A stretch of DNA of 64,000 bases from a virus (taxonomy: Duplodnaviria > Caudoviricetes). The notes beneath the pieces were generated by a model, which saw only the letters and a program-made list of their open reading frames with translations, was not told the origin of the DNA and ran no database searches. How positions within the stretch are numbered: position 1 is the stretch's first letter; every line of letters begins with the position of its first letter. The position numbers were made by a program, and so were the translations under genes. Location: the IMG/VR virus record IMGVR_UViG_3300020577_007013; one strand, 5' to 3'. Of this stretch, positions 5,229 to 52,653 are shown piece after piece.

Positions 5229-5627
5229 TTAGTTCAGTATGTCCAAAAGTTTCTCTCTATATCTGTTGTCTCTTTTCATGTAGAATGGACTTATCTCTAT
5301 GGCTCTGAATCCTTCAGGAAGTTCAAAGTCATACTCTACTAAGTCAAGATCTTTCTTTTTCTTGAGAATCAGTTGTATGAATTCCTCTTCCTCAATGCCT
5401 TCGTAGTTATTTGTGGAAGTGACAAGAAAAGTTGACTTATCTTCTGTAGTGAAAATGGTATTGTTTTGGTAGAAATCTCCAAATCCTATGTTCTGTCTAA
5501 ATCTCGTTGCATAGAAAAAGAGTTTAGGATTATCTCTGAATTTGAACTTAAGACATGAGCAGTCAGCAATTGATCCTTGATATCTTCTTACATCTATACA
5601 TTGAACAAATCCAGAAAGGTCACGCAT
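5229..5627 (-). CDS. Hypothetical protein with the shared C-terminal tag
   Basis: 132 aa; ends RYREKLLDILN. Confidence 0.7.
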   Translation of the reverse strand: MRDLSGFVQCIDVRRYQGSIADCSCLKFKFRDNPKLFFYATRFRQNIGFGDFYQNNTIFTTEDKSTFLVTSTNNYEGIEEEEFIQLILKKKKDLDLVEYDFELPEGFRAIEISPFYMKRDNRYREKLLDILN

Positions 5628-6084: not shown

Positions 6085-7098
6085 TTATAGTCTCTTTGTT
6101 CTTTTCTTCTTAAAACAATTTGCATTGTAAAAGTCTGTCATATTCTTTCTCATCCAAGCAGCAGGACTCTGTATTTCGTTATCTAAGACTTTCCTTAATT
6201 TAGGAATCCATCCTAGCTTAGAAAAGTCTATTCCAGAATTTAGAATCTTAGATTCCAGTCTCTTGATTTTTTCATACTTAAGTTTTTTATTCTCTTGTCT
6301 TTTATGTAGTTTTCTTCCTCTACAAGTTCCTAGTCTTTGTTTTTCTATGATCTCCTGAATATCATATTTAATTGACTTTTTTTCTTTCTCTTTTAGAAAA
6401 TTCAAGAACTTTTGAAATTCTTCATTGGGATTTTTATAAAAATTTACTCCAGCAATTCTGTAAATTATCCATCCGTCTGACTCTAACTCTAAGTCTCTTT
6501 TTTCATCATGAAGAATTTGTTTTTCCTTTAAATGCTGTTTTCCGTCCATCTCTAAGTCGATCTTAAATTCTAGAATAGCAAAGTCTAGAAAGTATCTCCC
6601 ACATCTGAATTGAAAGACATGATCTATTTTATTTTGAATAAGAAGAGACTCTAAGATTGATTCCAATCTAGACTTATTATTTATCATTTTCTTAGAATGA
6701 TACCAATTATTTCCTCTCCCTTCTCTATGAGCTTTTTTATGAGACTCTGAGAGTCTTCTTTTTGTCTCGTCACTTTTTGATAATTTTCTAGTAGGATTCT
6801 CTATCCAATTTTTTTTAAGTGACTCACTAAGCTTCTTTTTGATAAGGTCAGATTTCTCTTTTCCGTAAAATTCTTCCATAGAAAGTCCTTTTCTGGACTT
6901 AATCTGAATTCCGAGTCTTTCAAAATATTCTTTTTTTCTCCTTTTAGGAAATTTTCCTTTACAAGACTTTGAATGTATTGCCCTATTATGCTTTATCAGA
7001 AAATTACATTTCAGACATTTCCAATCTTCTGTGTAGAGATGTCTGTATTCGTCTTGTCTTTTTTCTCTTAGTTGTGTCCTTTTATTTCCAGATTGCAT
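6085..7098 (-). CDS. Free-standing homing-endonuclease-like protein (NUMOD3-like repeat plus DUF559/Vsr-like PD-(D/E)xK domain)
   Basis: SDETKRRLSESHKK; YFLDFAILEFKIDLEMDGKQH...DEKRDLELESDGWIIYRI. Confidence 0.8.
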   Translation of the reverse strand: MQSGNKRTQLREKRQDEYRHLYTEDWKCLKCNFLIKHNRAIHSKSCKGKFPKRRKKEYFERLGIQIKSRKGLSMEEFYGKEKSDLIKKKLSESLKKNWIENPTRKLSKSDETKRRLSESHKKAHREGRGNNWYHSKKMINNKSRLESILESLLIQNKIDHVFQFRCGRYFLDFAILEFKIDLEMDGKQHLKEKQILHDEKRDLELESDGWIIYRIAGVNFYKNPNEEFQKFLNFLKEKEKKSIKYDIQEIIEKQRLGTCRGRKLHKRQENKKLKYEKIKRLESKILNSGIDFSKLGWIPKLRKVLDNEIQSPAAWMRKNMTDFYNANCFKKKRTKRL

Positions 7099-7122
7099 TG
7101 TTTATTAAGTTATAGTAGTATA

Positions 7123-7160
7123 AAACGAGGCCCTAAGATATAGCTTTGTACCAGGGCCTC
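7123..7160 (-). terminator. Rho-independent terminator ending the ncRNA
   Basis: GAGGCCCT...AGGGCCTC followed by GTTTT on the - strand. Confidence 0.6.
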
Positions 7161-7605
7161 AACCATTTCCATGGTCATAGGCAATTAATGAGATAACTTT
7201 TCCATTTAACTGTAAGCTAATTTTTATTAGAGACGTCATAGCATTCGACTATTTCGGCCCTCATACAACAATGGGACTTATTGTATCAGGCGCCGAAATT
7301 GGGAGTTCAACCCAAACCTTCTCTTGATTTGTCTTACAGACTCGATTTATCTCTACCTACTATACTAAGATTAGGGTGAATAATCTGAGTTTCATAAAGT
7401 CCATCAACCATTTCTGATTGACGCGTTTACCTTTCGCCATCTCCACGTTCAGAATACCTTTTTCAGATACTCTCAGCGTGGAGACCTCTTTTGACAGAGG
7501 AAGGACTTTTTAATTCAGTCTTATTTTCAATCTTAGTCTGGGCGACGGTTCCTATGAACCGTCTCACCCTTTGCTCAACCTAGATAGCGAATCTAGTTGA
7601 GCTAA
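7123..7605 (-). ncRNA. Large structured ncRNA with two circularly permuted tRNA-like (Y-RNA-like) domains
   Basis: ~490 nt ORF-free region packed with stems; T-arm, loop-closed acceptor, D-arm order at 7229-7324 and 7396-7509. Confidence 0.75.
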
Positions 7606-7610
7606 TTTTC

Positions 7611-8339
7611 TCATCCGAAGATGAACTTCATTATGTCATTTCCAATTGTAGATCTTTCAACCTCAACTGAATTTGCTTCCTCTCTCGCAACCTTGACAGC
7701 TTTAGAAAGCTTGTCAATTTTATTTAAGAGGTCATTCTTTCTGTCCTGAGTTGTCGTACCAGAAAAACGAATTGTTGTGAACTGACCGACCACTTCGTCT
7801 CTGTAGAGAATTTCTGATTGTTCAGGATGTTTGTCAGTAGCTTTAGCTTTTGTAAAACTGAAAGGTTGCTTTAACGTTCTGTTTGTGCTTCTACCTTCAG
7901 TTTTGAAAAGACCACCGTCTCCTAAAGTCCATTTTTCAGCAGGATCTTGAACTGGGAATTTGTCGACAAAGGTCTTCAGATCTACCAACTGCTTCTCTAA
8001 GAAGATCAGATGAGTTGCAGGAACATCAGAAGCAATTACAGTACCGTCTACTGTAATGTTAGCTTTCGCTTTACAGTTTCCGTTATCGAGAGTTGCGACA
8101 ATGTTGATCAGATCGACAGTAGAGTCGTATGCATCTTTAATAGATTGCTCTACTGTGTACTGAACGATCTTAGACTCCGGTGGAAGAGTATCTTTCGAGT
8201 CGTCTGCTAAGGGCTTGTAAGTCTTATTGAATCCTTCGAAAAGATCTGATTTTTGGAGTTTGTGATACACCTCAGAGATCTTCGAAGTTCTTCTTGATTT
8301 TTCACCATTTGCAATGGCGATTACTTGTGTTAATTTCAT
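7611..8339 (-). CDS. Conserved uncharacterised coiled-coil protein, putative ncRNA partner
   Basis: KLTQVIA, TYKP...LPPE, VPATHLIFLEKQL, ATDKHPEQ, FSG and AREEAN match a widespread bacterial/phage hypothetical family (recognised from memory). Confidence 0.8.
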   Translation of the reverse strand: MKLTQVIAIANGEKSRRTSKISEVYHKLQKSDLFEGFNKTYKPLADDSKDTLPPESKIVQYTVEQSIKDAYDSTVDLINIVATLDNGNCKAKANITVDGTVIASDVPATHLIFLEKQLVDLKTFVDKFPVQDPAEKWTLGDGGLFKTEGRSTNRTLKQPFSFTKAKATDKHPEQSEILYRDEVVGQFTTIRFSGTTTQDRKNDLLNKIDKLSKAVKVAREEANSVEVERSTIGNDIMKFIFG

Positions 8340-8361
8340 AGTAAATAAATATATTTGACTT

Positions 8362-8574
8362 TCAGATCTCTGAAACTATTTGTCGAATTTTCTCTTTATA
8401 GAGAACTTCGGTGCTCGTCTCTTCCTTAGTTCTGACTATGGTGACTTTAGGCCATTCATAAGAGAGGCTTCCTCTATTGATACTAGAGGCTCCGATTCTG
8501 ACTATTTTCAATACGTTTTCAGGCATTATCTGAAAGTTAGATTTAATGAATTCTTCTGAGAACATATTCCTCAT
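8362..8574 (-). CDS. Mini-protein: copy of MCP residues ~75-114 plus C-terminal tag
   Basis: 22/40 identical to the MCP at 41577-43067. Confidence 0.85.
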   Translation of the reverse strand: MRNMFSEEFIKSNFQIMPENVLKIVRIGASSINRGSLSYEWPKVTIVRTKEETSTEVLYKEKIRQIVSEI

Positions 8575-8711
8575 TTCTCGTCGACTATCTTTTTGATTTT
8601 CTCTTTAAAATCATTTTCTACTTTGCTAGGTTTTTTCTCTTTAGGATCCAGACTATCATTGTCATTAGCCTTAATCCATTTCATAAAGTCTACGAATGTG
8701 TTAAGCCTCAT
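8571..8711 (-). CDS. 46-aa mini-protein with C-terminal tag (not in ORF track)
   Basis: MRLNTFVDFMKWIKANDNDSLDPKEKKPSKVENDFKEKIKKIVDEK; overlaps both neighbours. Confidence 0.75.
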   Translation of the reverse strand: MRLNTFVDFMKWIKANDNDSLDPKEKKPSKVENDFKEKIKKIVDEK

Positions 8712-8949
8712 TCAAAATTTCTTTGACCTTTTCTTTATAAGTGGATTCTACTGCAGAGACCGAAACCGGAGAAGAATAGACTCTGTCAATGAAGTATATC
8801 GCATCGTCAGGAGCTACCATCGGCCATTCAGTAATCAATGACTTAGCTACTAAATGAGTAGAATAGATTCTACCATTTTTATTTGATTTCTTCAAGAATC
8901 TCCTTGAGTTTGTCACAGTAAACTTTCTTATGAGCTTCTCTTGTGTCAT
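8701..8949 (-). CDS. Mini-protein: copy of MCP residues 108-129 plus tag (likely TTG start at 8895)
   Basis: TEWPMVAPDDAIYFIDRVYSSP is 16/22 identical to the MCP; AAGGAG precedes the TTG at 8895. Confidence 0.85.
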   Translation of the reverse strand: MTQEKLIRKFTVTNSRRFLKKSNKNGRIYSTHLVAKSLITEWPMVAPDDAIYFIDRVYSSPVSVSAVESTYKEKVKEILNEA

Positions 8950-9082
8950 TTGTAAGAGTGACTTCAGCCATAGTAGTATAAGAGTATCCTATACTATTGA
9001 CTTTTCCCATCTTGACACCTCCGTAGAACATTTCAAATTGTCCTGAACTCAGGTCTAGAAATCCGTGAGAACTACTTGACAA
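8879..9082 (-). CDS. Mini-protein: copy of MCP residues 279-293 plus tag
   Basis: NSIGYSYTTMAEVTL vs NILGYSYTRMAEMML (10/15). Confidence 0.8.
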   Translation of the reverse strand: MSSSSHGFLDLSSGQFEMFYGGVKMGKVNSIGYSYTTMAEVTLTNDTREAHKKVYCDKLKEILEEIK

Positions 9083-9284
9083 TGTCTTCTACCTTCTTTA
9101 CATATTCTTTTTCAAGTTCGGTTTTTTCTTTGATCTCACCTTGAACCCATTCCATAGTATATAGCTCCATGGCTTTCTGAACATGTGGATTATTGAAATA
9201 TAAATATTGGCTCTCTAAAAGTTCAGCGGCTTTTCTAGCTTTACTGTCATCTAGGAAATATTTCTTGATCTTGTCAATCCACAT
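9072..9284 (-). CDS. Mini-protein: copy of MCP residues 55-73 plus tag
   Basis: SKARKAAELLESQYLYFNN vs SRARNTALALENQERYLKN (9/19). Confidence 0.75.
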   Translation of the reverse strand: MWIDKIKKYFLDDSKARKAAELLESQYLYFNNPHVQKAMELYTMEWVQGEIKEKTELEKEYVKKVEDIVK

Positions 9285-9522
9285 CTTCGATAATTTTCTC
9301 TATTTCATCCTTGTAGTTAGTTTTCATTTTTGGATCTAACTTAACTCTTGGTTGTGGATATTGTCTCATGAATCCTGTGCAATCTATCCAGTCATCGAAG
9401 ATAAGTTGCATCTCAGATCTAGTGACTCCACCAAAGTCCATGCTATTATTGATCGAGACTATTCCACCGATCTTTCGACCATTCTGATCGAACACTCCTC
9501 CATCTCTGAGTTCAATTATCAT
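9274..9522 (-). CDS. Mini-protein with C-terminal tag
   Basis: 82 aa; ends NYKDEIEKIIEDVD. Confidence 0.75.
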   Translation of the reverse strand: MIIELRDGGVFDQNGRKIGGIVSINNSMDFGGVTRSEMQLIFDDWIDCTGFMRQYPQPRVKLDPKMKTNYKDEIEKIIEDVD

Positions 9523-9685
9523 CTAACATGTCCAAAAGCTTTTGCTTCTGTTCTTCTTCTTGAAGTTTTCTATTGAGTCGCTTTAGATTTTTGACTTCAT
9601 CCATTTGATGAATCAGCTCATTGACCTTTTCTAAATAGTCGGAGTCGCCTTCATTGTCAGACTTTGAGAATTTACTTGTCCTCAT
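9512..9685 (-). CDS. 57-aa mini-protein with tag (not in ORF track)
   Basis: MRTSKFSKSDNEGDSDYLEKVNELIHQMDEVKNLKRLNRKLQEEEQKQKLLDMLDDN; overlaps both neighbours. Confidence 0.7.
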   Translation of the reverse strand: MRTSKFSKSDNEGDSDYLEKVNELIHQMDEVKNLKRLNRKLQEEEQKQKLLDMLDDN

Positions 9686-10163
9686 AGGTCTCTTCTGTGT
9701 CGATTTTTAGTTCAGTCATTCCACTAGGCTTTCCATCTAACATCATTGTTGGAGGACTTATAAAAGGTAGCTGAGTTATTGGAAGATAAGGTGCATGAAT
9801 GTAGCCTTCAGTTAATTCAGAAAGTTCCATGACTTCAGGCTCTTTCTTTTTATTCTTGAAATTTGACATAAGAGCTTTGACATCCAGCTCTCCGTCTTTA
9901 TTGAAAATTTCTTTCTTTTTGTATTCTCTCTTAAAGAGATCTTTGAATTTTTCCCAAAGAGACTTTTTACGTGGAGAGTAATGCTTAAGTTTTCCGTACA
10001 TTCTGAAGAAGTCATCAGTCATTAATTCTTCATGAGTCTTCTCTTTTCTTTTCCAGAGTTTTTTCTGGAGTTTTTTCCAAAAAGACTTAGGCTTAGGTTC
10101 TACATACTGAAGACCAGGTTCTCCTAAATCTATGTAAGCTTTTATTTTCGAAATTTCAGACAC
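9672..10163 (-). CDS. Array protein with two amphipathic repeats and a gp23-type GY.HAPY.P motif
   Basis: KSFWKKLQKKLW and KSLWEKFKDLF; EGYIHAPYLPI. Confidence 0.75.
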   Translation of the reverse strand: MSEISKIKAYIDLGEPGLQYVEPKPKSFWKKLQKKLWKRKEKTHEELMTDDFFRMYGKLKHYSPRKKSLWEKFKDLFKREYKKKEIFNKDGELDVKALMSNFKNKKKEPEVMELSELTEGYIHAPYLPITQLPFISPPTMMLDGKPSGMTELKIDTEETYEDK

Positions 10164-10396
10164 TAAAAAAGATCCTTGATTTTTTGCTTGTACGAAGTCA
10201 ACAATTCAGTTGGATTATAATAGAGAGGCATTGATAGATTTTTAAGCCACTCAATTACTCTCTTGTCTCTTTCTCTTTGTCTAAGCTTATGTTCTTCAGC
10301 TATAGCATTTACGAGCATAAGCTCTATGTCTCCTATCTTAGAGAATGGACTTGAGTCTACCAACATAGTCATCCTTAACTTTACTTTTTCTTTCAT
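10163..10396 (-). CDS. Mini-protein: copy of MCP residues ~298-320 plus tag
   Basis: IGDIELMLVNAIAEEHKLR vs LGNVEDMLVRAVGDEHALR (10/19). Confidence 0.8.
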   Translation of the reverse strand: MKEKVKLRMTMLVDSSPFSKIGDIELMLVNAIAEEHKLRQRERDKRVIEWLKNLSMPLYYNPTELLTSYKQKIKDLF

Positions 10397-10529
10397 CTTC
10401 TACTACAGTTACAAAGCCATAGCCGATAGGGTCTTCATCAAAGAAATTCTTAGGAACTCCGGTAACTTTTGCTACCAGGTCGTAGAGTTCTCTGATCTTC
10501 TCATCTGTAAGTGATTCGTCTTTATTCAA
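10338..10529 (-). CDS. Mini-protein: portal-like segment plus tag (TTG start overlapping the VWA stop)
   Basis: LYDLVAKVTGVPKNFFD vs portal LLNALVVSTGLPRNLLD. Confidence 0.7.
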   Translation of the reverse strand: MNKDESLTDEKIRELYDLVAKVTGVPKNFFDEDPIGYGFVTVVEDERKSKVKDDYVGRLKSIL

Positions 10530-11935
10530 ATGATTGACCTGAAAGCTAACTTCGCTTGTGAAAGATCTTCGATATTTCCTGTATCCATGAAAGACAAAGA
10601 CTCTGAAAGTTTGTTGCAATTTTCAATGTTACCCATATCTTCCAAGAATACGAAGTGGAATTTCTTTCCTTGTACTCTATGCTTAATAAGTTCATTCATG
10701 GTAGGGATTCTGATATCCTCTGTACCGTCTGTTACCATAATGATGTCCGACTTATCAAGACCGTCTACTTCATTCTTGTCAATGTCCTTCACAGCATAAG
10801 TGAGAGCCATGTCCATGTCAGTACCACCATCTGGATGTGTATTGAGAATGAAGTCAAGAAATGTATTCCAATGAGCTCTTCCTTTTAGAACGAACAAGCT
10901 TCCTAAACGTCCTTCAAACCATCTGCAATAGAATGTCGTTCCGTCTTTCATGGCTTTCTTCGCTAAAGCGATTGCCACTGCTTTAATGAACATTTGACGA
11001 TTGTTTTCATGAGTGGATCCTGAACGATCTAACAAAGCATAGAGACATTGTTTAAGATCTTTTCTCTCTTTGTATTTCATGACTCTCAATGATTTGGTCA
11101 TGATCTTACGGTCAAGAACATCATCAATTGTAACTTCGAACTTGACTGCCTTGCTTACATCGTTCATTTTCTTCATCTTAGAATAGTGAAGATTGGAAGA
11201 AATGTTTTCAGTCTCGTAGAGTTTTCCTCTCTTCGATTGACTGAAGAATGATGTCTCCAGATTTTTAGCGATCTCAAAAATGGAAGCATTTTCATTAGAG
11301 AGAAGTTGCTGAACCATTTGCTTGATCTTGAGCTTCTTGTCCAAGATCTCTTTATAGGTCCTATCAAAGTGACCCATATCTTTTGTTGAACCTGTATTTT
11401 CGGTTTTACCGTCATCTTCAGGAACATCGTATGAGTAGTTCATTATGTGCTCGAATAAGAATCCGAATGAAGAGAAGATCTTGGATACATTTTGTCCAGT
11501 TGATCCTCCACCCATACCACCGTTAGGCTGACGACCAGCTTTTTGATTTTCAATGATAGCTGAGAAGATCTGACAAACGAAGTCAAATTTCTCCTCTAAA
11601 GATAGAGACTTGGATTCAATGTACTGCTCAACAATATCAGACTCAGCAAAATGAATAATGTCCATTTTGAGTTTGAACATCTGAGCTTCAGTGTGCTCAA
11701 TATTATTGACTTCACCTTTTTTGTATCTGTCGATCGCATTTCTTGAAATCTCCAGATCTGATGACATATACTTGAAACAATTTGTCTTCCCTTGAGCTAT
11801 GAGACAAAGTGTATCTTCAAGAACCTCTTTTGGAAGTGCTGAAAGAGAAGGGTACTTAGCGTACCCCTTGTTCACCATGTCGGTATAGAATGTAGGGAGA
11901 TCTATCTTTATGAATCTCATTTTACTTCTTATCAT
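10526..11935 (-). CDS. VWA-domain protein (ViaA/CoxE-like)
   Basis: MIDAS LLDRSGST, GGTD, MVTDG. Confidence 0.88.
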   Translation of the reverse strand: MIRSKMRFIKIDLPTFYTDMVNKGYAKYPSLSALPKEVLEDTLCLIAQGKTNCFKYMSSDLEISRNAIDRYKKGEVNNIEHTEAQMFKLKMDIIHFAESDIVEQYIESKSLSLEEKFDFVCQIFSAIIENQKAGRQPNGGMGGGSTGQNVSKIFSSFGFLFEHIMNYSYDVPEDDGKTENTGSTKDMGHFDRTYKEILDKKLKIKQMVQQLLSNENASIFEIAKNLETSFFSQSKRGKLYETENISSNLHYSKMKKMNDVSKAVKFEVTIDDVLDRKIMTKSLRVMKYKERKDLKQCLYALLDRSGSTHENNRQMFIKAVAIALAKKAMKDGTTFYCRWFEGRLGSLFVLKGRAHWNTFLDFILNTHPDGGTDMDMALTYAVKDIDKNEVDGLDKSDIIMVTDGTEDIRIPTMNELIKHRVQGKKFHFVFLEDMGNIENCNKLSESLSFMDTGNIEDLSQAKLAFRSII

Positions 11936-13094
11936 CCATTGGGAAGATCTCGTCTTCTGAAAGTCCAGATTGTGAGACCTTATCTTCGATCAATTTCTTA
12001 AGATCTTTTGCTTTCTCAAGAACTGATTTTTGGCAATTAGCTTGAGTCCATTCAGAGATTTTATCTTTGATATGTGAAGCGAGAGCTGCAAGCATTCTTG
12101 TTCTCTCAAGCTTATCATCATATTTGAGAATCTTAGTGTGAAGAGCTTTCTCAAATTTCATGAGCTCCATTCCCATTGCCATTGATTTTTCTGATTTGTC
12201 AAAGACAGCATCGAATTTGTCTGAGTTCTTGATGTCTCCACCATTCACAAGTGCATATTTAATGCTCTTGAGATTCTCAACTTCAATTGTCTCTTGACCT
12301 TTGAGGAATGCATCAGCTTTAGCGACAAGCAACATTTTATTTTTCTTTCTCGGACTGATACCGATACTTGTCTGCTGTGTGTACTCATCAAGAATTGCAT
12401 CGAACATGATGAGAAGCATATCAGAGAATTGAGGCTTGTATTTCTCAAATTCTTCGTGAAGAATCTTCAGATCATGGAAAGCAAATTTCGGATATTCTTC
12501 GTCAGAGATTCCTCTTAAGAAGTTGGAGAACATTTTGATTCTGCTTTCTTGTTTTACCAAGTCAGCAACTTCAGATGTGAAGAGAATACGATCATAAACA
12601 GCTCGAAGTTCTTTCTCCTCCTCTCTCTCTTGATTCGTTGTCATGATAGCTGTGAGTAGCTTTGCTGGAATTGTTCTGCTCTGTCTCGTAGATGATCTCT
12701 CGTTCAAGATCTCATTTGCAGAAACGAGAAGCTCTTCAGAAGCATTAAAGAATTCGTCCAATCTCGCAAAGTCTGTTGTGAGAAGTGAACCTTCAATGTT
12801 ATGAACGATGTTACCTTTCTTGAATTCCTCAATTGACTGAGGACCCATGATGTATTGGTCGTCCATGAATCTTGTGAACTGTTGTTCAAAGACTGTAGCT
12901 CCTGTAAAGCCTTTAAGAATCTTCTGACTTAGAAGTGTCTTCGCTGTACCTGGAAGTCCTTTTAGAAGCACATGCTCCTTAATGAGAATTGCCAATTTTA
13001 TTTGGTTTGTCTCATACTCTCTTTCAGAGAAAAAGTCCTCCATCTTTTTGAAATAATCTTGATAGTCTTGTTTAAGTTTTTTTACTTCCTTCAC
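11922..13094 (-). CDS. MoxR-family AAA+ ATPase (RavA-like)
   Basis: EHVLLKGLPGTAKT, LDEFFNA, ILNER, AVYDRI, ISPR. Confidence 0.9.
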   Translation of the reverse strand: MKEVKKLKQDYQDYFKKMEDFFSEREYETNQIKLAILIKEHVLLKGLPGTAKTLLSQKILKGFTGATVFEQQFTRFMDDQYIMGPQSIEEFKKGNIVHNIEGSLLTTDFARLDEFFNASEELLVSANEILNERSSTRQSRTIPAKLLTAIMTTNQEREEEKELRAVYDRILFTSEVADLVKQESRIKMFSNFLRGISDEEYPKFAFHDLKILHEEFEKYKPQFSDMLLIMFDAILDEYTQQTSIGISPRKKNKMLLVAKADAFLKGQETIEVENLKSIKYALVNGGDIKNSDKFDAVFDKSEKSMAMGMELMKFEKALHTKILKYDDKLERTRMLAALASHIKDKISEWTQANCQKSVLEKAKDLKKLIEDKVSQSGLSEDEIFPMDDKK

Positions 13095-13114
13095 TGTGAT
13101 CTCCTTGTGTTTAT

Positions 13115-13615
13115 TTATATAACGTCTTCTAGAATCGACAACAAAAGCTTGCTGTCTTCTCTCTTTTGTTGTTTATAGTGTTCGATGAACTTCGAACCTT
13201 CTTCAAATTCGTTAATGTATCTTCTCATATAGTCTGATTTTCCATGAGAAACTATGTATTCATCATAGAATTCTCTCGTATTTATAATGTCAAGAGAATC
13301 TGTAGGAATTGGAAGCAAGCCATACACAATGTATTCACTTTTTGCTTTTCTATTGTCTTCAACTGGGCAGTTTGTCTGAAACAAATAATTGAGTCCTTCT
13401 GCTCTAGAAGGAACTAAAGTCTGAAAATATTCTATATTGCTTCTAGAGTAAGTCTGACAGAAAGCTGTAGAGCTTAAATCATTGTGATGAAAGTTCCTAA
13501 CATAGAATTCATCTGTAGGAAGCTCTAGATCTCTGACCATTGTCCTCACATATTCGTAATGTGAATGTGTGAGAAAGTTTTTGCCCACACCTAGAAATAA
13601 TTTCTCTAGTGTCAT
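13115..13615 (-). CDS. Hypothetical protein
   Basis: 166-aa ORF. Confidence 0.7.
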   Translation of the reverse strand: MTLEKLFLGVGKNFLTHSHYEYVRTMVRDLELPTDEFYVRNFHHNDLSSTAFCQTYSRSNIEYFQTLVPSRAEGLNYLFQTNCPVEDNRKAKSEYIVYGLLPIPTDSLDIINTREFYDEYIVSHGKSDYMRRYINEFEEGSKFIEHYKQQKREDSKLLLSILEDVI

Positions 13616-14578: not shown

Positions 14579-14945
14579 AACGTTCCTTCATAAAGTTCGA
14601 CCATAGACTTATCATATTGTCTCTTCCGTTAATGTTTGATGAATGGACTGTGAATCGTTCTACTTTACTGAGATCAATTTTTCCGTCAAGATCCATTTCG
14701 ACGAGTTTATTTAGGAAGTCTTTTCCTGTCTTCGACTCAAGTCCTAGGTCATGGTCAAGAGTCATCATTCTAGGAACTCCTAATTTAAGAATGAGCTCTA
14801 TAGCTTCATCATAAGTTCTAGCAATTTTCCAATTCCACTCTTCTCTCTTATACTTCTTCTGTCCTTTACAAGACAGTTCAGAAATAGCATTGGGAAATAT
14901 GTAATCGAGTTCCCTAATGTCGTCTAGGAAAAGATCATAGAGCAT
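14559..14945 (-). CDS. Cyclic-phosphate-processing receiver-domain protein
   Basis: LFLDDIR, ARTYDEA, LDHDLG..KTG, VHSSN..G. Confidence 0.8.
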   Translation of the reverse strand: MLYDLFLDDIRELDYIFPNAISELSCKGQKKYKREEWNWKIARTYDEAIELILKLGVPRMMTLDHDLGLESKTGKDFLNKLVEMDLDGKIDLSKVERFTVHSSNINGRDNMISLWSNFMKERYGSVFI

Positions 14946-16131
14946 GATTTGATATATTAAAGATTTCCTTAAGCTCTTTCAAAAACTTAGGATCTTTACA
15001 GAACTCTTTAGAAGGTTCATCAGATATCTTAGCGACAGGTTGTCCATTAATTTCTGACAACTTGATTACCATTTGAGGATTCTTTTTTCCGATATTGCAA
15101 GTCAGATGAGTACCTATTCCGAAGACGATTTTGATTTGACCATGAAATTTTTCATAGATCTCTGATGCTTTCTCAAATGTAATTGAGTCACTGAAGATTG
15201 CAGTTTTTGTCATTGGATCAATTTTCGATTTTTTGAGTTCCTGAATTAGAAAATCACACCATTCAATAGGATCACCGCTATCATGTCTGAATCCTGAAAA
15301 ATCAAGCAGTTGGGTTGAGAATTCTATCAATTGTCTAGAATTTATCGTGTCGGTCAAGGCTATATGATATTGTTCAGGATAGACTGAACTCCACATAGAG
15401 AAAGCTTCGTCTTGGAAGTATTGAATTGGATTCTGTCTTAAAACCTGAAATGCTTGGATGTACTCATGGGCCATAGTTCCAACTGCTCTAAGAGAAAATT
15501 TCTTAGCAAAGAAAACATTGCTCGTTCCAGTAAAATTCTCTGGACAATTTGTGAGAATCGCTCTTAAGATTGCTTCATGATGCCTAAATGATGCTCGTCT
15601 TCTAGTTCCGTAGTCTGAAAATTTAATTTCCTTAGCTTCCTTCTTTATGAAGGAAAGACCGTCCACTGTCTTATGGCAGAGTTCCAGTTCTTCTACCATG
15701 CTGAGACCGAACTCTCTTTCGAAATAGACTTCATTAAGGATGGATAGAATCGGTATCTCGAAGTAGGTGATCTCTTTCCAATTTCCTGAAATTTTGATTT
15801 GAAGCTTCCCATCCTGTTCATAGACATTTACATTTGATCTCTTCAACTTCAGAGTGGAGAGAAACTTAAGATAGTCTCTACTGAAGAGTCTAAAGGAATC
15901 CAAGTATTCGATGTCTTCTTTTGTGAAAGTGAGAGTACAAAGATGGTTAATTTCTTTTTCAATATCGTCTTTCCATTCTAGAAGATCGACTTCTGAACGA
16001 CAGATTAATTCGAAAGAAGCTGAGATATTCTCCCCTTTGAATCTCTCGAAGACGCAATTCCCCATTGTAAATTTGTAGAGATCCGTATCAAGTAGACTAT
16101 TGATGACCATAAATTTGCTCCGACATTTCAA
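14935..16131 (-). CDS. pncB: Nicotinate phosphoribosyltransferase
   Basis: SLLDTDLYKFTM, DYGTRRR, GTSNV, GTMAHE, RHDSGDP, FGIGT, VAKISD. Confidence 0.93.
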   Translation of the reverse strand: MKCRSKFMVINSLLDTDLYKFTMGNCVFERFKGENISASFELICRSEVDLLEWKDDIEKEINHLCTLTFTKEDIEYLDSFRLFSRDYLKFLSTLKLKRSNVNVYEQDGKLQIKISGNWKEITYFEIPILSILNEVYFEREFGLSMVEELELCHKTVDGLSFIKKEAKEIKFSDYGTRRRASFRHHEAILRAILTNCPENFTGTSNVFFAKKFSLRAVGTMAHEYIQAFQVLRQNPIQYFQDEAFSMWSSVYPEQYHIALTDTINSRQLIEFSTQLLDFSGFRHDSGDPIEWCDFLIQELKKSKIDPMTKTAIFSDSITFEKASEIYEKFHGQIKIVFGIGTHLTCNIGKKNPQMVIKLSEINGQPVAKISDEPSKEFCKDPKFLKELKEIFNISNHAL

Positions 16132-27067: not shown

Positions 27068-28921
27068 TTACTTTATTGATAGCCATTCTTTTCTATCATC
27101 AGCTCTTTTCTTATTGAAAGCGAGATCCACCATTTCTGAGCAATTTTTGTCAGGAACAAATTGTACGAGATGATTCGTTTCCATATTCTTAAAATAGATA
27201 TCGAAGTCTTCTGGAGTCGATGTTCCCAAACCTTTATAGTGCTTGATCGTGAATTTCAGATCTTGATTTTCTTTATTCCATTTTTGATAATCCTTCTCTG
27301 TAAAGAAACAGAGTGTCTCATCTTTGAGAAAGACTTTCACATAAGGAGTTACAAATCTGTACATGATTCCTAAGTCAAAGAGTTCAGGCCAGAAAGTATA
27401 GAACATATTTATGAGCTGTCCAGTTATCGAGAATCCGTCAAGGTCATTGTCGGTAAGAATTATAATCTTCCCATATCGAATTTGACTGACAGACTCAATT
27501 TTATCTCCGACTTGAAGTCCGATAATTGACATGAGATTTTTGAATTCTTCATTCTCTTTTAGGTCTGCAACTGAAGCTCCTCTAACATTGATCGGTTTTC
27601 CTCTCAACGGAAAGACGGCCATTGTTTTAGGATCTCTCACATCTTTCGGATTTCCTGCTGCTGAGTCTCCTTCAACCAAGAAGAGCATACATTCAGCTCT
27701 ATTTTCTGAAGTAGCGTCGCTAAGTTTTACAATCTTCTTGAGATTTTTCTTATCGACTTCCTTACCCATCTTACGAAGTTCTTTTTGAGCGGCTGCAGCT
27801 TCCTTAGCTGCTATCCAATCTAAGATTTCCTGGATGATTTCACTTTTTATGACCTTTTTAATAAATTTTTCAGAAACAGAATATTCAGATCCGAATGAAC
27901 TCTTCTCGGTTATTAAGTATTCCTTAGTCTGAGAAGCATATTTTGGATTTATGATAGTGCAATCTAAGAAAAGTAGAAAGTGATTTTTTATGTCAGAAGG
28001 TTTGACTTCAGTCTTATGTTTTTTCTCTATATAGTCTCTGACTCCGCTAATAATTTGATTCATCACATAGTCAATGTGTGTACCATCTTTAGTTATTGCT
28101 GAATTTACGAAGCTGACATTCTCAAAGCCGTTTTCAGAAACAGTAACCCCTATTTTCCAATTACCCTCTTCCTCATAGATGCATTCTGATTTATATAAAG
28201 AGACATAGTCTTCAAAATCTTTGAGTTTTATTGTGTCTCCATTTAGCTTTACTTTTAAATGGGTGTTCGTTCCAGCTATGTCCACCACTCTTTTGTACAA
28301 TACAAGCCTTGTATCCTCATCAAGCTTTGTTTTGAGTCTGTCATAATCAGGAAGGTAGCTTATTTTAGTATAATTTTTGTCTGAATCTGTAATCTTCGGA
28401 GTCGACTTCTCTGAAAGATTATTAGAGAATGTCTGTCTAAATTTTTTCTCTCCATCACATGTTTCTACTATGAATTCTTTTGAAAAAACATTTGTAAGAG
28501 TTGCTCCTAAACCATGAGTTCCTACAGTTGTTCGTTGTTCGTCATCATTAAAGTTTGATCCGGCTTTTGTCTCACTAAAAATCATTTCAGGAACGTATTG
28601 ATTATGTTCTTTATGAATGACGACAGGAATTCCACCGTTATCCCAAACAGAAATCCAACCGTCGTCACCAATTTCCACCTTAATTTCATCCAGATTTTTA
28701 TTTCTCTTAGACTCATCAACTGAGTTGGAGATAATCTCATCGAATAATTTTAAAAAAGCTGGAGAGTATGTCACATTCTTTTTTTCCATCTTATTCAAGG
28801 ACGGATTATAAATCCAAGTCAAGTCAGTGTGAGCTTCAGTATTTCCAATATACATTCCAGATCTTTTTAAAATATGATCTATATCGGAAAGCTTTTGATA
28901 TTTTTGCTCAATTGTTTTCAT
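27068..28921 (-). CDS. Type II topoisomerase ATPase/TOPRIM subunit (T4 gp39+60/GyrB-like)
   Basis: HILKRSGMYIG, EIISNSVDE, EGDSA, PLRGK, TDNDLDG, YKGLGT. Confidence 0.95.
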   Translation of the reverse strand: MKTIEQKYQKLSDIDHILKRSGMYIGNTEAHTDLTWIYNPSLNKMEKKNVTYSPAFLKLFDEIISNSVDESKRNKNLDEIKVEIGDDGWISVWDNGGIPVVIHKEHNQYVPEMIFSETKAGSNFNDDEQRTTVGTHGLGATLTNVFSKEFIVETCDGEKKFRQTFSNNLSEKSTPKITDSDKNYTKISYLPDYDRLKTKLDEDTRLVLYKRVVDIAGTNTHLKVKLNGDTIKLKDFEDYVSLYKSECIYEEEGNWKIGVTVSENGFENVSFVNSAITKDGTHIDYVMNQIISGVRDYIEKKHKTEVKPSDIKNHFLLFLDCTIINPKYASQTKEYLITEKSSFGSEYSVSEKFIKKVIKSEIIQEILDWIAAKEAAAAQKELRKMGKEVDKKNLKKIVKLSDATSENRAECMLFLVEGDSAAGNPKDVRDPKTMAVFPLRGKPINVRGASVADLKENEEFKNLMSIIGLQVGDKIESVSQIRYGKIIILTDNDLDGFSITGQLINMFYTFWPELFDLGIMYRFVTPYVKVFLKDETLCFFTEKDYQKWNKENQDLKFTIKHYKGLGTSTPEDFDIYFKNMETNHLVQFVPDKNCSEMVDLAFNKKRADDRKEWLSIK

Positions 28922-30149
28922 TGTTCTTGATACCGTCTTCTATTTGAAAATATTTTCTCAGATATTGAGTATAATATTCAAAGTAGAACCCCTCGTAGTT
29001 TTCTTTTGTAATCTCCATAATTCCATTTTTCGAAAAGAATTTGATTATCTTCAAGCAATTCTTATCGAAAGCGTCTGTTGAGCTTATCCTAAGAACTTTA
29101 TATCCGTTCTTTTTAGCTATTTTAAATTTCTCTTTTTCTGAAGGATTTGGATTTTTTGGATCATGCCAGTAGATCCCGTCATATTCGATAATTAATTTTT
29201 TCTCTTCTATTGAGAAATCGTATCTATAAAAATCTTTTTCCTTTCCACCGAAGAGTCTTAGTTCTTTTAATCCCATTGCTCCGAAGTTAATTGTATAGTT
29301 TTCCTTAAGACATTCATAGAGAAATATAAAATATTTAAGAGACTCTTTGGAGGCTTGTCCTTTCCAAAGTCTCATAAGAGACTTATAGTTTCTGATTAGC
29401 TCATCATAATTTTTCGAGACTTCAAAAGCTTTTGTAAGACAATAAAGCCTAAAGACTGTGTAATGTTTTCTTCTTTTGGATCTTTTTCCTATATAAAGAG
29501 AGACTCCCTTTTCGTACCCATACTTGTTAATTTGAAACTTTAGACCTATGGTCGATTGCCTTTCTCTTAATTTTTCTTTCGCTTCTTCTTGAGAGAATCC
29601 TTTTTTAAGCCAATATCCTATTTGAGTTGCAGTCCTATCTTTCCTAGTATTATCGACTCTCTTAGAGAGCTCTGACTGAAATTGAGATCTTAATTTAATT
29701 GAGTCTTCTTCTGAGTGTCCTCTAACTATCCAGTATTCTACATTCAATTTTTTACAAGACCTAGCTTTGAATAAGGCTTCCTCTTGTGTGTAATTGATCC
29801 CTGTCAAAGGATTTATTTTAGCTAGCCAATTGTCTTCTCCGAAAGGAGAATTACGTAAGTAAGAGTCACAATGTTCTTTGGATTTTTTAGAAGCTTGTTC
29901 CTCACCCCAACCTCTAAGTGTCCAATACTTTATTGAATTTTGACTTCTAGATTTTCCAGCTGTACCGATTTTTTCCCTAATCAATTTTGTTAATTGACCG
30001 AATCGAAGTCTAGGATTTGCTTTACAGCAAGTTAAAGAGAAGTCCAAGAGTGACTCTCTCAATTTAGGTTCTAAGTTTTTTATTTTGTAGTCTAAGTATT
30101 CTAGAAGTTCTCTTTCTGAACGGTCTATGACTTTTCCTTTTAAATTCAT
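28908..30149 (-). CDS. Free-standing endonuclease-like protein (YW..RG repeats plus PD-(D/E)xK domain)
   Basis: Repeated YWxxRG/KG units; YDF...IIEYDGIYWH...GYKVLRI. Confidence 0.75.
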   Translation of the reverse strand: MNLKGKVIDRSERELLEYLDYKIKNLEPKLRESLLDFSLTCCKANPRLRFGQLTKLIREKIGTAGKSRSQNSIKYWTLRGWGEEQASKKSKEHCDSYLRNSPFGEDNWLAKINPLTGINYTQEEALFKARSCKKLNVEYWIVRGHSEEDSIKLRSQFQSELSKRVDNTRKDRTATQIGYWLKKGFSQEEAKEKLRERQSTIGLKFQINKYGYEKGVSLYIGKRSKRRKHYTVFRLYCLTKAFEVSKNYDELIRNYKSLMRLWKGQASKESLKYFIFLYECLKENYTINFGAMGLKELRLFGGKEKDFYRYDFSIEEKKLIIEYDGIYWHDPKNPNPSEKEKFKIAKKNGYKVLRISSTDAFDKNCLKIIKFFSKNGIMEITKENYEGFYFEYYTQYLRKYFQIEDGIKNNENN

Positions 30150-50703: not shown

Positions 50704-52653
50704 TTAGTCCTCTTTTGATTCAGATTCTTCTGATAATTTTTGCTTTCCTTCTTTTTTCCATTCCACTAAAAGTGAAACGTCGAAGTCTTGACTTCCTATA
50801 CTTGAAGAATAGAAGTGTCTACCTCTGAATGTCCCTTCTCTAAATGATTTTTTTGTCTCTTTATAAATTTCGCTTTCGACTTGTTCTTTGAGATTCATTT
50901 TCTTTTTCATCGGTCTTTTTCTAGAAGTCGATTCTTTTGCTTCTCCAGTTTCAGGAGCCGGAGTTTCCTCAGTAGGAGGCTGTTCTTCTTCACCAGTCGG
51001 TGCTGGCTCTTCATTTGATAAGAGATCTAATGGGGAAGATTCCCCACCACCTCCACCAACTTCAGGAGCAGGAGCTTCTTCAGTAGAAGCTGCTTGTTGT
51101 CCAGGAAGTTGTCCCGTCAGTTGTCCAGAAGCCATTGTTAAGTCAACCCATTTCTCTATATCAGAAGGAGGATATGGAAGAATTTTTGTATAGACTTGAG
51201 TAACAACGTCTTTGTTAAGATTTTCTCCTTGAGCGACCAACTTAGCTTGAAGTGAGTCTAAGATTGAATTTGCCAAAGTAACAAGATCTGATTGCGATCC
51301 GATGAGCTCTCTATCAGATTGACTTTCAGGATAAGGCATTGTAAGTCTAAAGTCAATATCCTTTAAAGGAAATCTTCCAGACTGAACAAGATGTATCTTG
51401 ACAAGTTGTGTAATTTGTTCAAGAAGACAAGACTGAATGTGAAAGATCTGTCTTTTAAATGGAACATATTGTTGAATAAGTGAGATACCACTATTTCCAA
51501 ATGTTCCGTTATTGGGATCCAATAAGTTTCTCGGAAGACCTGTTGAGACAACCAAAGCATTGAGTAAAAGTTCCAAGTCACCTATATCACTAAGATCAAG
51601 TTGTGGAACAATTTGCTCATAAGTAAAGAGACCATCGATAGTTATAATTCTCTCACCGACCGCTATACCTTCTTTCTTTGTTTCTCTTAATCCTGAGTTG
51701 TCAAACTCTCTAATGAACTCCAAAACTTTTTCAATCTTATCTGTAGGAGACATTACGTTAGGAAGAGAAATTTTATAAAGATCAATCGGAAATTTTGCTC
51801 CTCTACCTACTGACTGAAGAGTCATCGCAGCATCATATTGTCTGAAAGGAGCAACACTGTGAATAAAAACAGGAATTCCGAATGGGTAGAATGGAGTCTT
51901 AGAAGTAAAGTTTCTGAAGTGAAGAAATCTCCAAGGAGGAAGAACGAAGTCTCCTACTTCGAATCCGAAAAGATATGACTTAAAATAAGTAGAGTAGTCT
52001 TCCTTAAGATCATCTATACTGTTGACTAAGTGTCTTAGCTTTTCATTTTTTGAAAGCATTGAATTGAGAGCTGAATTGACTTTATTAATTTCCTTCGATA
52101 CTTGATGAGGAGTAAACTCTAGTCTTGATTTTATATCGAATACATCTACAGGAAGGACTGTATCGATTCCAGCATCATTAAGAGTAGTCACCCATCCAGC
52201 ATTTCCATATTGAATAATGTTAAGAGCTGTTGACCTCAAATATTTTTCTATTCCTGATTTAGAGATGAACTCAAGAATAAAGTCTCTTAAGAAAGGATCT
52301 TGAGCTTCGACACCGATAATTTGTGAATTTGTGTCAGCTTGAACTGTCTCATCTGCCATGAGATTCATCGCTCTCGAAAGAAATGGACTATTGTAATAGA
52401 TCATGTCCATATCCATGAAGAGTTCTTTCCTATTTTGGAAAGATTCTCTGTCATCATGACAATCAGAGATCCAGTATTTTAGAAGAGTGTCTACTTGTTT
52501 TGGAAACTGTTCTCTAACACTATTATAGAGTCCTTCTCTATCCTTAACCAACTTTGTTGGAAATGGGACTTTTTTATCCTTATCGATTCCGATTTTGAAT
52601 AATCGCCTGAAAAGCGACACTTTTTCATTGGAAATTTGATTTTCTTCAGCCAT
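50704..52653 (-). CDS. Portal protein (T4 gp20-like) with an acidic Pro-rich tail
   Basis: AMNLMADE, YGN, WRFLHFR, PFG, DIGDLE...TGLP. Confidence 0.88.
   Translation of the reverse strand: MAEENQISNEKVSLFRRLFKIGIDKDKKVPFPTKLVKDREGLYNSVREQFPKQVDTLLKYWISDCHDDRESFQNRKELFMDMDMIYYNSPFLSRAMNLMADETVQADTNSQIIGVEAQDPFLRDFILEFISKSGIEKYLRSTALNIIQYGNAGWVTTLNDAGIDTVLPVDVFDIKSRLEFTPHQVSKEINKVNSALNSMLSKNEKLRHLVNSIDDLKEDYSTYFKSYLFGFEVGDFVLPPWRFLHFRNFTSKTPFYPFGIPVFIHSVAPFRQYDAAMTLQSVGRGAKFPIDLYKISLPNVMSPTDKIEKVLEFIREFDNSGLRETKKEGIAVGERIITIDGLFTYEQIVPQLDLSDIGDLELLLNALVVSTGLPRNLLDPNNGTFGNSGISLIQQYVPFKRQIFHIQSCLLEQITQLVKIHLVQSGRFPLKDIDFRLTMPYPESQSDRELIGSQSDLVTLANSILDSLQAKLVAQGENLNKDVVTQVYTKILPYPPSDIEKWVDLTMASGQLTGQLPGQQAASTEEAPAPEVGGGGGESSPLDLLSNEEPAPTGEEEQPPTEETPAPETGEAKESTSRKRPMKKKMNLKEQVESEIYKETKKSFREGTFRGRHFYSSSIGSQDFDVSLLVEWKKEGKQKLSEESESKED

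Follow-up and report, generated by a model that had tools for sequence, protein, structure and literature searches.

A conserved phage mini-gene carries a probably old, selected copy of a block of the phage's own capsid protein and may act as a competitive bait

Bacterial innate immunity has capsid and portal proteins among its prime triggers, the major capsid protein (MCP) and the portal protein being direct triggers of the bacterial sensors CapRel and Avs (PMC9712102, PMC13581612), and the question arises of how phages hide such unavoidable, conserved proteins. Competition for the site of the trigger is how one phage protein, DSAD1, blocks DSR2, a sensor of the tail tube (PMC11087589). In phage T4, a stretch of 29 residues called Gol, located in the first quarter of the capsid protein gp23 and its most conserved part, binds EF-Tu and switches on the protease Lit (PMC3014915). 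Here we describe a phage locus in which excerpts of conserved capsid and portal blocks have been kept as separate, selected and fast-evolving mini-genes with a common handle, until their similarity at the DNA level was erased.

The window, which is the whole stretch of 64,000 nucleotides analysed here, originates from a giant, uncultured phage of the Caudoviricetes and is part of a contig of 253,865 bp. All genes, blocks and motifs for which coordinates are given below lie on its minus strand. About ten small genes, abutting or overlapping each other, extend from position 10619 down to 8362, directly after the genes of a MoxR AAA+ ATPase (11922-13094, with a GTG start) and its vWA/MIDAS partner (10526-11935), and directly upstream of the gene of a DUF7873 protein (7611-8339). 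These mini-genes form a translationally coupled array that is syntenically conserved. It is located 33 kb from the head module and is surrounded by replication and accessory genes. The mini-gene o8701 (8701-8895) encodes 64 residues; its TTG start follows AAGGAG, and this is also the product that was called in the source collection. Translation from the ATG that lies in frame at 8949 would give 82 residues. The 64-residue product is made up of an MCP-like block, corresponding to about MCP residues 100-137, and the tail YKEKVKEILNEA at 8704-8739.

Copied MCP blocks were also found in o8362, o8879 and o10163. In o8362 (8362-8574, 70 residues), a block at 8440-8559 copies MCP residues 75-114 (72-115 in the HMM match) and is followed by the tail YKEKIRQIVSEI; the match to the MCP has an E-value of 4e-10 in tblastn and of 1e-12 with the HMM. 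The block of o8879 (8879-9082, 67 residues, tail YCDKLKEILEEIK) is located at 8954-8998 and copies MCP residues 279-293, with an E-value of 0.024 against the MCP-family HMM, while that of o10163 (10163-10396, 67-77 residues, tail YKQKIKDLF) is located at 10241-10336 and copies residues 298-326 (E 0.016). Together with o8701, these genes gave the four best non-self matches to the MCP HMM among 972 frames. Along the operon, the four MCP pieces follow each other in reverse-collinear order, which is not significant for four items (1 in 12). A fifth MCP fragment, which the original prediction had placed in o9072 (9072-9284, read as MCP 55-73), proved to be at chance level (MCP-HMM E 4.6), and the gene matches the portal protein instead. 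This portal protein (50704-52653) is T4-like with a weak match to PF07230, and is the source of the block at 9135-9278 in o9072 (70 residues, tail YVKKVEDIVK), which resembles portal residues 58-111. The match had an E-value of 4e-4 for o9072 and of 2e-5 for two of its orthologues, and the motif NSP..AM.L...E.VQ is common to o9072 and the portal protein. No source protein was identified for o8571 (8571-8711, 36-46 residues, tail FKEKIKKIVDEK) among the large proteins of the window, nor for o9274 (9274-9522, 82 residues, tail YKDEIEKIIEDVD) within the window. The array further includes o9512 (9512-9685, 57 residues) and o9672 (9672-10163, 163 residues), both without the terminal tail, and its first gene, o10338 (10338-10619, 56-93 residues), which overlaps the stop of the vWA gene and ends in YVGRLKSIL. 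Searches of the mini-proteins against Pfam and PHROGs, and of positions 7000-10700 against Rfam, gave no match. A resemblance of GYIHAPYLPI in o9672 to a gp23 motif was likewise not borne out by Pfam at E<=10.

Eight genes of the array end in Y-K-E-K-I/V-K-x-I-L-x-E, or a close variant of it, 0-4 residues before the stop. The tail pattern reads Y-[KVC]-x-[KE]-[IVL]-x-x-[IL]-[IVLF] within 0-4 residues of the stop codon, and o8701 conforms to it; carriers of the motif are o8701, seven more genes in 8362-10619, and the gene at 5229-5627. Since the tails differ in their codons, they represent a peptide motif and not a DNA repeat, and this common tail of the mini-genes is an amphipathic helix. A monomer model of o8362 has a pLDDT of 57 and was built from an alignment of four rows, and the tail helix is the only part with a pLDDT above 70; at this low confidence the tail helix alone is usable, and the model does not establish disorder of the copied block. 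The gene at 5229-5627 lies outside the array and encodes a protein of 132 residues that ends in YREKLLDILN, the same tail motif, so the tag extends beyond the array.

The tail also bears on the question of whether the mini-proteins serve the adjacent MoxR-vWA machine, as adaptors or substrates, with the tail helix as a handle that is read by the AAA+/vWA pair. The copied blocks would then direct the machine to the capsid or portal protein, or compete for the machine. The genes of MoxR and vWA overlap each other and the first mini-gene, their order is kept in all relatives that reach that far, and the tail is the feature that is common across the array, all of which would agree with such a role. 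However, the same tail ends the gene at 5229-5627, beyond the DUF7873 gene and an endonuclease gene, and we regard such a role as improbable. The operon link to MoxR and vWA may point to a different, non-immune role.

Upstream of the operon formed by MoxR, vWA and the array lies a full-length gene of nicotinate phosphoribosyltransferase, an enzyme of NAD salvage (14935-16131), and the related metagenomic contig L001 has a match to this enzyme at the same place. The T4 late-promoter consensus TATAAATA occurs at 13112-13119, which is 18 nt upstream of the GTG start of MoxR and just before AAGGAG. With four copies in the window against 2.6 expected, this motif is not enriched, and it is absent upstream of the MCP gene, so no timing of expression can be inferred from it. 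Two genes resembling DUF559-type endonucleases, at 6085-7098 and at 28908-30149, are likely homing endonucleases; the second adjoins genes of type II topoisomerase subunits.

The source of the capsid blocks, encoded at 41577-43067, is a T4 gp23-like MCP of 496 residues with an HK97 fold. Many of its 78 metagenomic homologues carry PF07068, while the MCP of the window alone falls below the Pfam thresholds, and the profile of the MCP family matches the Gp23 chain of PDB entry 9ukm, the head of bacteriophage P1 (E 6e-11). The AlphaFold (AF2) model of the MCP has a mean pLDDT of 82.6, and Foldseek matched it to the P1 head (5e-23) and T4 gp23 (3e-12), as well as to the capsid of the Staphylococcus jumbo phage S6. 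Both the membership of the PF07068/gp23 family and an HK97 fold with an insertion domain in the E-loop were thus found. In this model, the copied blocks comprise the N-arm helices H76-83, H87-100 and H103-106, the ascending E-loop stem strands E108-111 and E118-126, the descending E-loop stem strand E277-286 and the spine helix H301-329. The two strands of the E-loop stem are separated by a beta-rich insert, at about residues 130-275. The block of o8362 extends from the N-arm helices to the first E-loop strand, the copied part of o8879 is the descending E-loop stem strand and that of o10163 is the spine helix. As the insertion domain of T4-like capsid proteins is located inside the E-loop (PMC9958956), the four copied pieces cover one continuous core of the HK97 fold, minus the insertion. 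Among capsid homologues, conservation is also higher in the copied MCP columns than in the remainder of the protein, for instance with an identity of 0.79 versus 0.55 for the homologue P0008.

Some further observations were made on the head proteins. MCP residues 1-76 (42840-43067) represent a capsid propeptide that aligns to the propeptide of T4 gp23 (T4 residues 7-59) and has the motif ENQE in common with it. Mini-protein o8362 begins with MRNMFSEE opposite LKNMAEAT of the MCP, near the expected maturation cleavage. Columns 86-125 of the MCP profile align weakly (E 0.2) to the conserved region 94-133 of T4 gp23, and Gol is presumably situated near this stretch of gp23. Just downstream of the head module, an ORF of 65 residues (40766-40963) matches residues 90-127 of the prohead protease/scaffold protein (44191-46212) with an E-value of 0.003; it does not carry the tail motif, and may be another excerpt or a chance match.

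The copied block of o8701 is located at 8767-8832 and consists of 22 codons that read TEWPMVAPDDAIYFIDRVYSSP, a copy of MCP residues 108-129. Its source block in the MCP gene, at 42681-42746, reads TEWPLVTPDDAIYFVDRTYAAP and forms the strands E108-111 and E118-126 of the ascending E-loop stem in the model. A codon-by-codon recount agreed with the earlier observation that 16 of the 22 residues are identical and that 10 of these 16 use different synonymous codons; the same codon is used in 6/16, and nucleotide identity is 45/66. By the Nei-Gojobori method, the block and the phage's own MCP have a pS of 0.82, which is beyond Jukes-Cantor saturation, and a pN of 0.17, a low value that is partly built in because the block was found via protein similarity. 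Independent evidence for selection has for that reason to come from the orthologous mini-genes. Under independent codon choice, taken as two independent draws from the codon usage of the long genes of the window, 7.6 same-codon pairs are expected and six were observed. The count is at chance level, and no similarity in DNA is therefore left beyond what the shared residues force.

Several searches converge on the same block. A tblastn search of the MCP against the whole window retrieved 8838-8743 as MCP 106-137 (E 9e-8), and a profile HMM of the MCP family, built from 39 capsid homologues, matched o8701 at E 1e-7. In a control scan of 696 small frames against the 37 large proteins of the window, six pairs had an E-value below 0.01, and 5/6 were inside the 2-kb array. 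Judged from these sequence comparisons, the likeness of the block to the MCP is not due to chance. The 22 codons sit in a real, expressed-looking gene of 64 residues, and are an ancient copy of a block that ranks among the most conserved of this phage's gp23-like MCP. With about 38 of its 64 residues alignable to the MCP, o8701 does not comprise a full-length HK97 fold, which rules out a complete capsid paralogue like gp24.

The array is orthologous and syntenic in the metagenomic contigs L001-L003, L004, L006/L007 and L009-L013, which originate from several samples, and its synteny extends over at least three related metagenomic phage lineages. Mini-gene frames are open in all relatives, and neither the broken frames nor the dN/dS near 1 of pseudogenes were found. 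In comparison with L001, dN/dS was 0.19 for o8701 and 0.06-0.39 for the other array genes. Orthologous mini-proteins match the MCP at E-values of 1e-15 to 4e-3, independently of the copies in the window. Within o8701, 14/22 columns of the block are invariant versus 8/30 outside it (p 0.011), making the block the most conserved part of the protein, as expected if the peptide is under selection. When the five genes were pooled, invariant columns made up 74/144 in the copied blocks and 53/138 elsewhere, a modest overall excess (p 0.03), and 33/56 in the tails versus the same 53/138 elsewhere (p 0.01). These data bear on the view that the mini-genes are neutral debris, either a decaying MCP copy or leftovers of illegitimate recombination that are open by accident. 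The pieces are indeed short and not collinear with the MCP. However, the dN/dS of 0.06-0.39, the conservation of frames, starts and tails in three or four lineages, and the preferential conservation of copied residues, which were kept despite saturation of silent sites, all argue against debris, and we give this view almost no credence.

Although the mini-genes are constrained, they evolve far faster than their neighbours. The MoxR and vWA proteins share 99-100% identity with those of L001, at a dN/dS of 0.01 and a dS of 0.3-0.7, whereas mini-proteins share 46-84% identity with their orthologues, with a dS of up to 2.6 in some mini-genes, and the non-synonymous evolution of the mini-genes is 50-200 times faster than that of the neighbours. 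The sharp mosaic boundary between MoxR-vWA and the mini-genes suggests recombination or very unequal constraint. Gene content is also variable: the portal-like gene o9072 is missing from the array in the L009-L011 type, and the DUF7873 gene is absent from the L008, L010 and L012 type. Compared with window positions 6085-8339, the last mini-gene of L008, L010 and L012 is directly followed by the DUF559/MTES_1575 endonuclease-like gene, and both the DUF7873 gene and the non-coding stretch of about 500 nt after it are absent there, indicating an indel between strains. Fast evolution combined with variable gene content is typical of accessory, conflict-related genes.

This pattern is relevant to a possible role of the mini-proteins as modulators of assembly, which would bind the phage's own scaffold, chaperone, protease or capsid via the copied blocks and would tune or time head assembly, like the small T4 core proteins gp67 and gp68. 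The N-arm, the E-loop stem and the spine helix are established as parts of the HK97 fold that make contacts between subunits and with the scaffold (PMC9958956), a portal block is present too, and small, abundant core proteins exist in T4 (PMC9958956). Yet the array is 33 kb away from the head module, among replication and accessory genes, and a non-synonymous change that is 50-200 times faster, together with variable gene content, would be unusual for core assembly factors. We therefore consider a role in assembly unlikely, although less so than the other alternatives weighed here.

The original prediction had offered two origins for a block that is conserved as protein and not as DNA: an old duplication with the peptide under purifying selection, or capture of the fragment from the MCP of a diverged relative, which would resemble a peptide-level memory of competing phages. 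We codon-aligned the MCP genes of the three closest relatives that could be retrieved (P0006, P0007 and P0008, with a protein identity of 75, 71 and 60% to the phage's own MCP) to all four fragments, and found silent-site saturation against all of them and no near-identical DNA; synonymous and non-synonymous divergence were not equal across the fragments. The DNA identity of the o8701 block was 68-73% to the own MCP gene and to each of the three relatives. Among the other MCPs, the best residue match of the block was P0008, with 18/22 residues and 45/66 bases. Over the four fragments, the same codon was used as in the own MCP in 24/58 conserved residues, where 27.4 are expected at random, and as in the relatives' MCPs in 17-24 residues, where 25-27 are expected. 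The own MCP matches the four fragments at 53/89, none of 38 other MCPs is higher, and the more distant one of these 38 is from the own MCP, the less identical it is to the fragments (rho 0.78). Array genes have a GC3 of 0.32-0.41, and their GC and GC3 are as in the rest of the window. With no closer donor, a native composition and saturated silent sites, there is no sign of a recent or foreign donor. For the age of the copies only a bound can be given: the own MCP gene and that of the relative with 75% identity already show silent-site saturation (pS 0.71), so the copies predate at least a divergence of that order.

These comparisons suggest that the fragments were derived long ago, from the capsid lineage of the phage itself or from one very close to it. 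We consider it very probable that the block of o8701 was copied long ago and kept by selection, and not captured recently. The first of the two predicted origins is supported by the silent-site saturation against the own and three relatives' MCPs, by the orthologous and syntenic gene, by its dN/dS of 0.19 and by the block being its most conserved part. The second, capture from a diverged relative, agrees neither with the best other MCP, at 18/22 and 45/66, nor with the native GC3 and the 53/89 of the own MCP that no other MCP exceeds, and no support was found for a memory of competing phages. An ancient capture from within the same MCP clade is an alternative source that the data formally allow. 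A recent capture of another phage's MCP fragment, kept as a peptide memory, has in its favour the bare divergence of the block from the own MCP, and nothing more. The best sampled MCP gene shares 73% of the block's DNA and silent sites are saturated against all, GC3 is native, o8701 is orthologous and syntenic in relatives at a dS of 0.3-2.6, and GenBank phages and IMG/VR gave no match. As neither donor DNA identity nor foreign composition nor absence from close relatives was observed, we regard recent capture as extremely unlikely.

Competition between phages could also be served by old copies, if the mini-proteins were weapons against co-infecting relatives, that is, dominant-negative fragments that poison the capsid assembly of competitors of the same clade. 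This would retain the competition idea of the original prediction without its capture step. At one site, the block is nearer to the clade consensus than to the own MCP (DRVY versus own DRTY), and it matches P0008 at 18/22 and P0006 at 17/22 residues, versus 16/22 for the own MCP. However, this difference amounts to only one or two residues, no other MCP matches the four fragments better than the own MCP does, and the poison would act on the phage's own capsid just as much. Weapons of this kind appear very improbable to us.

We propose instead that each mini-protein acts as a bait, in which a short and probably unfolded excerpt of a virion protein would be displayed on a common docking helix. 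The bait would act by competition, occupying the site with which a partner normally reads capsid or portal protein that has just been made. As the partner we favour a host immune sensor of conserved virion proteins, for which the mini-protein would be a decoy or blocker, like DSAD1 is for DSR2. The precedents of Gol, CapRel/Avs and DSAD1, together with the rapid evolution and the presence/absence variation of the mini-genes, lead us to favour a competitive bait or decoy, although by analogy and tentatively. That the mini-proteins work as a competitive mimic of some kind seems probable. Host immunity as the target of this mimicry is a more tentative suggestion, made by analogy with the same systems. 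An explanation that combines ancient selected copies with a role as competitive baits, most likely for a host immune sensor, is the best that we can offer, and in our estimate its chances fall a little short of even. In a still more doubtful extension, the array would be a heritable library of peptide baits, made of the most conserved and most 'visible' blocks of capsid and portal, that blinds the pattern-recognition immunity of the host. If true, this would be a modular anti-immunity strategy that is new for phages. A Gol-like copy would not be obviously protective, since the isolated Gol peptide activates Lit rather than blocks it (PMC3014915).

The mini-gene family is a lineage-specific invention. 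Neither the MCP protein nor the DNA of the array had a match in GenBank phages, scans of IMG/VR with the MCP and with DUF7873 revealed no relative, and a scan of JGI metagenomes with MoxR likewise revealed none, though protein look-ups did reach JGI contigs. A word-based search of 5.8 billion proteins returned close orthologues only, and when o8701 was searched exhaustively with phmmer against 1.84 billion representatives, its own orthologue cluster and one doubtful match, to a protein of 1443 residues, were all that emerged. Because the family occurs in a single narrow clade of phages, the comparative evidence has little depth. As a concrete candidate for mimicry by protein fragments in phages, the array provides defined peptides of 15-45 residues with which to find the partner, and to find which parts of gp23-type capsid proteins are 'read' in the cell. 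In the literature, we found no description of such fragment-plus-tag mini-genes in phages.

Among known systems, DSAD1 of SPbeta-like phages is likewise small and phage-encoded, and competes with a structural protein of the virion for the binding site on a partner that reads this protein (PMC11087589), which is the mode of action that we propose here. In that paper, DSAD1 is not described as copying the sequence of the tube protein, and it is a single gene without a shared tag (PMC11087589). Furthermore, binding of DSAD1 to DSR2 was demonstrated (PMC11087589), whereas binding by the mini-proteins is proposed. In the Gol/Lit/EF-Tu system of T4, Gol is a short, most conserved stretch from the first quarter of a gp23-type capsid protein that acts as a ligand alone (PMC3014915), as a copied block might do, and the blocks of o8362 and o8701 overlap the stretch aligned, weakly (E 0.2), to T4 gp23 94-133. 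Unlike the mini-genes, Gol is part of gp23 itself and has no separate gene, and it activates a host protease instead of blocking it (PMC3014915). The ankyrin-repeat ORFs of Bodo saltans virus also consist of a fragment of an own essential protein fused to a common module, and have been proposed as decoys of host defence (PMC5871332). They belong to a eukaryotic giant virus, however, the module is a large ankyrin domain, the fragments are derived from catalytic domains and the role as decoy is proposed only.

The vertex protein gp24 of T4 is a paralogue of gp23 that arose by intragenomic duplication of the MCP and was retained under selection. In contrast to the excerpts of 15-45 residues found here, which are encoded by separate mini-genes and carry a foreign tail, gp24 has a full-length HK97 fold and is built into the capsid. 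Eukaryotic microProteins, or dominant-negative fragments, are short proteins that retain a single block for interaction from a larger protein and work as competitors; they belong to another domain of life and have neither an arrangement in arrays nor a common tag. The mini-genes, each a fragment of an own virion protein joined to a common tag, represent an undescribed kind in phages, with the ankyrin fusions (PMC5871332) and the microProteins as conceptual precedents.
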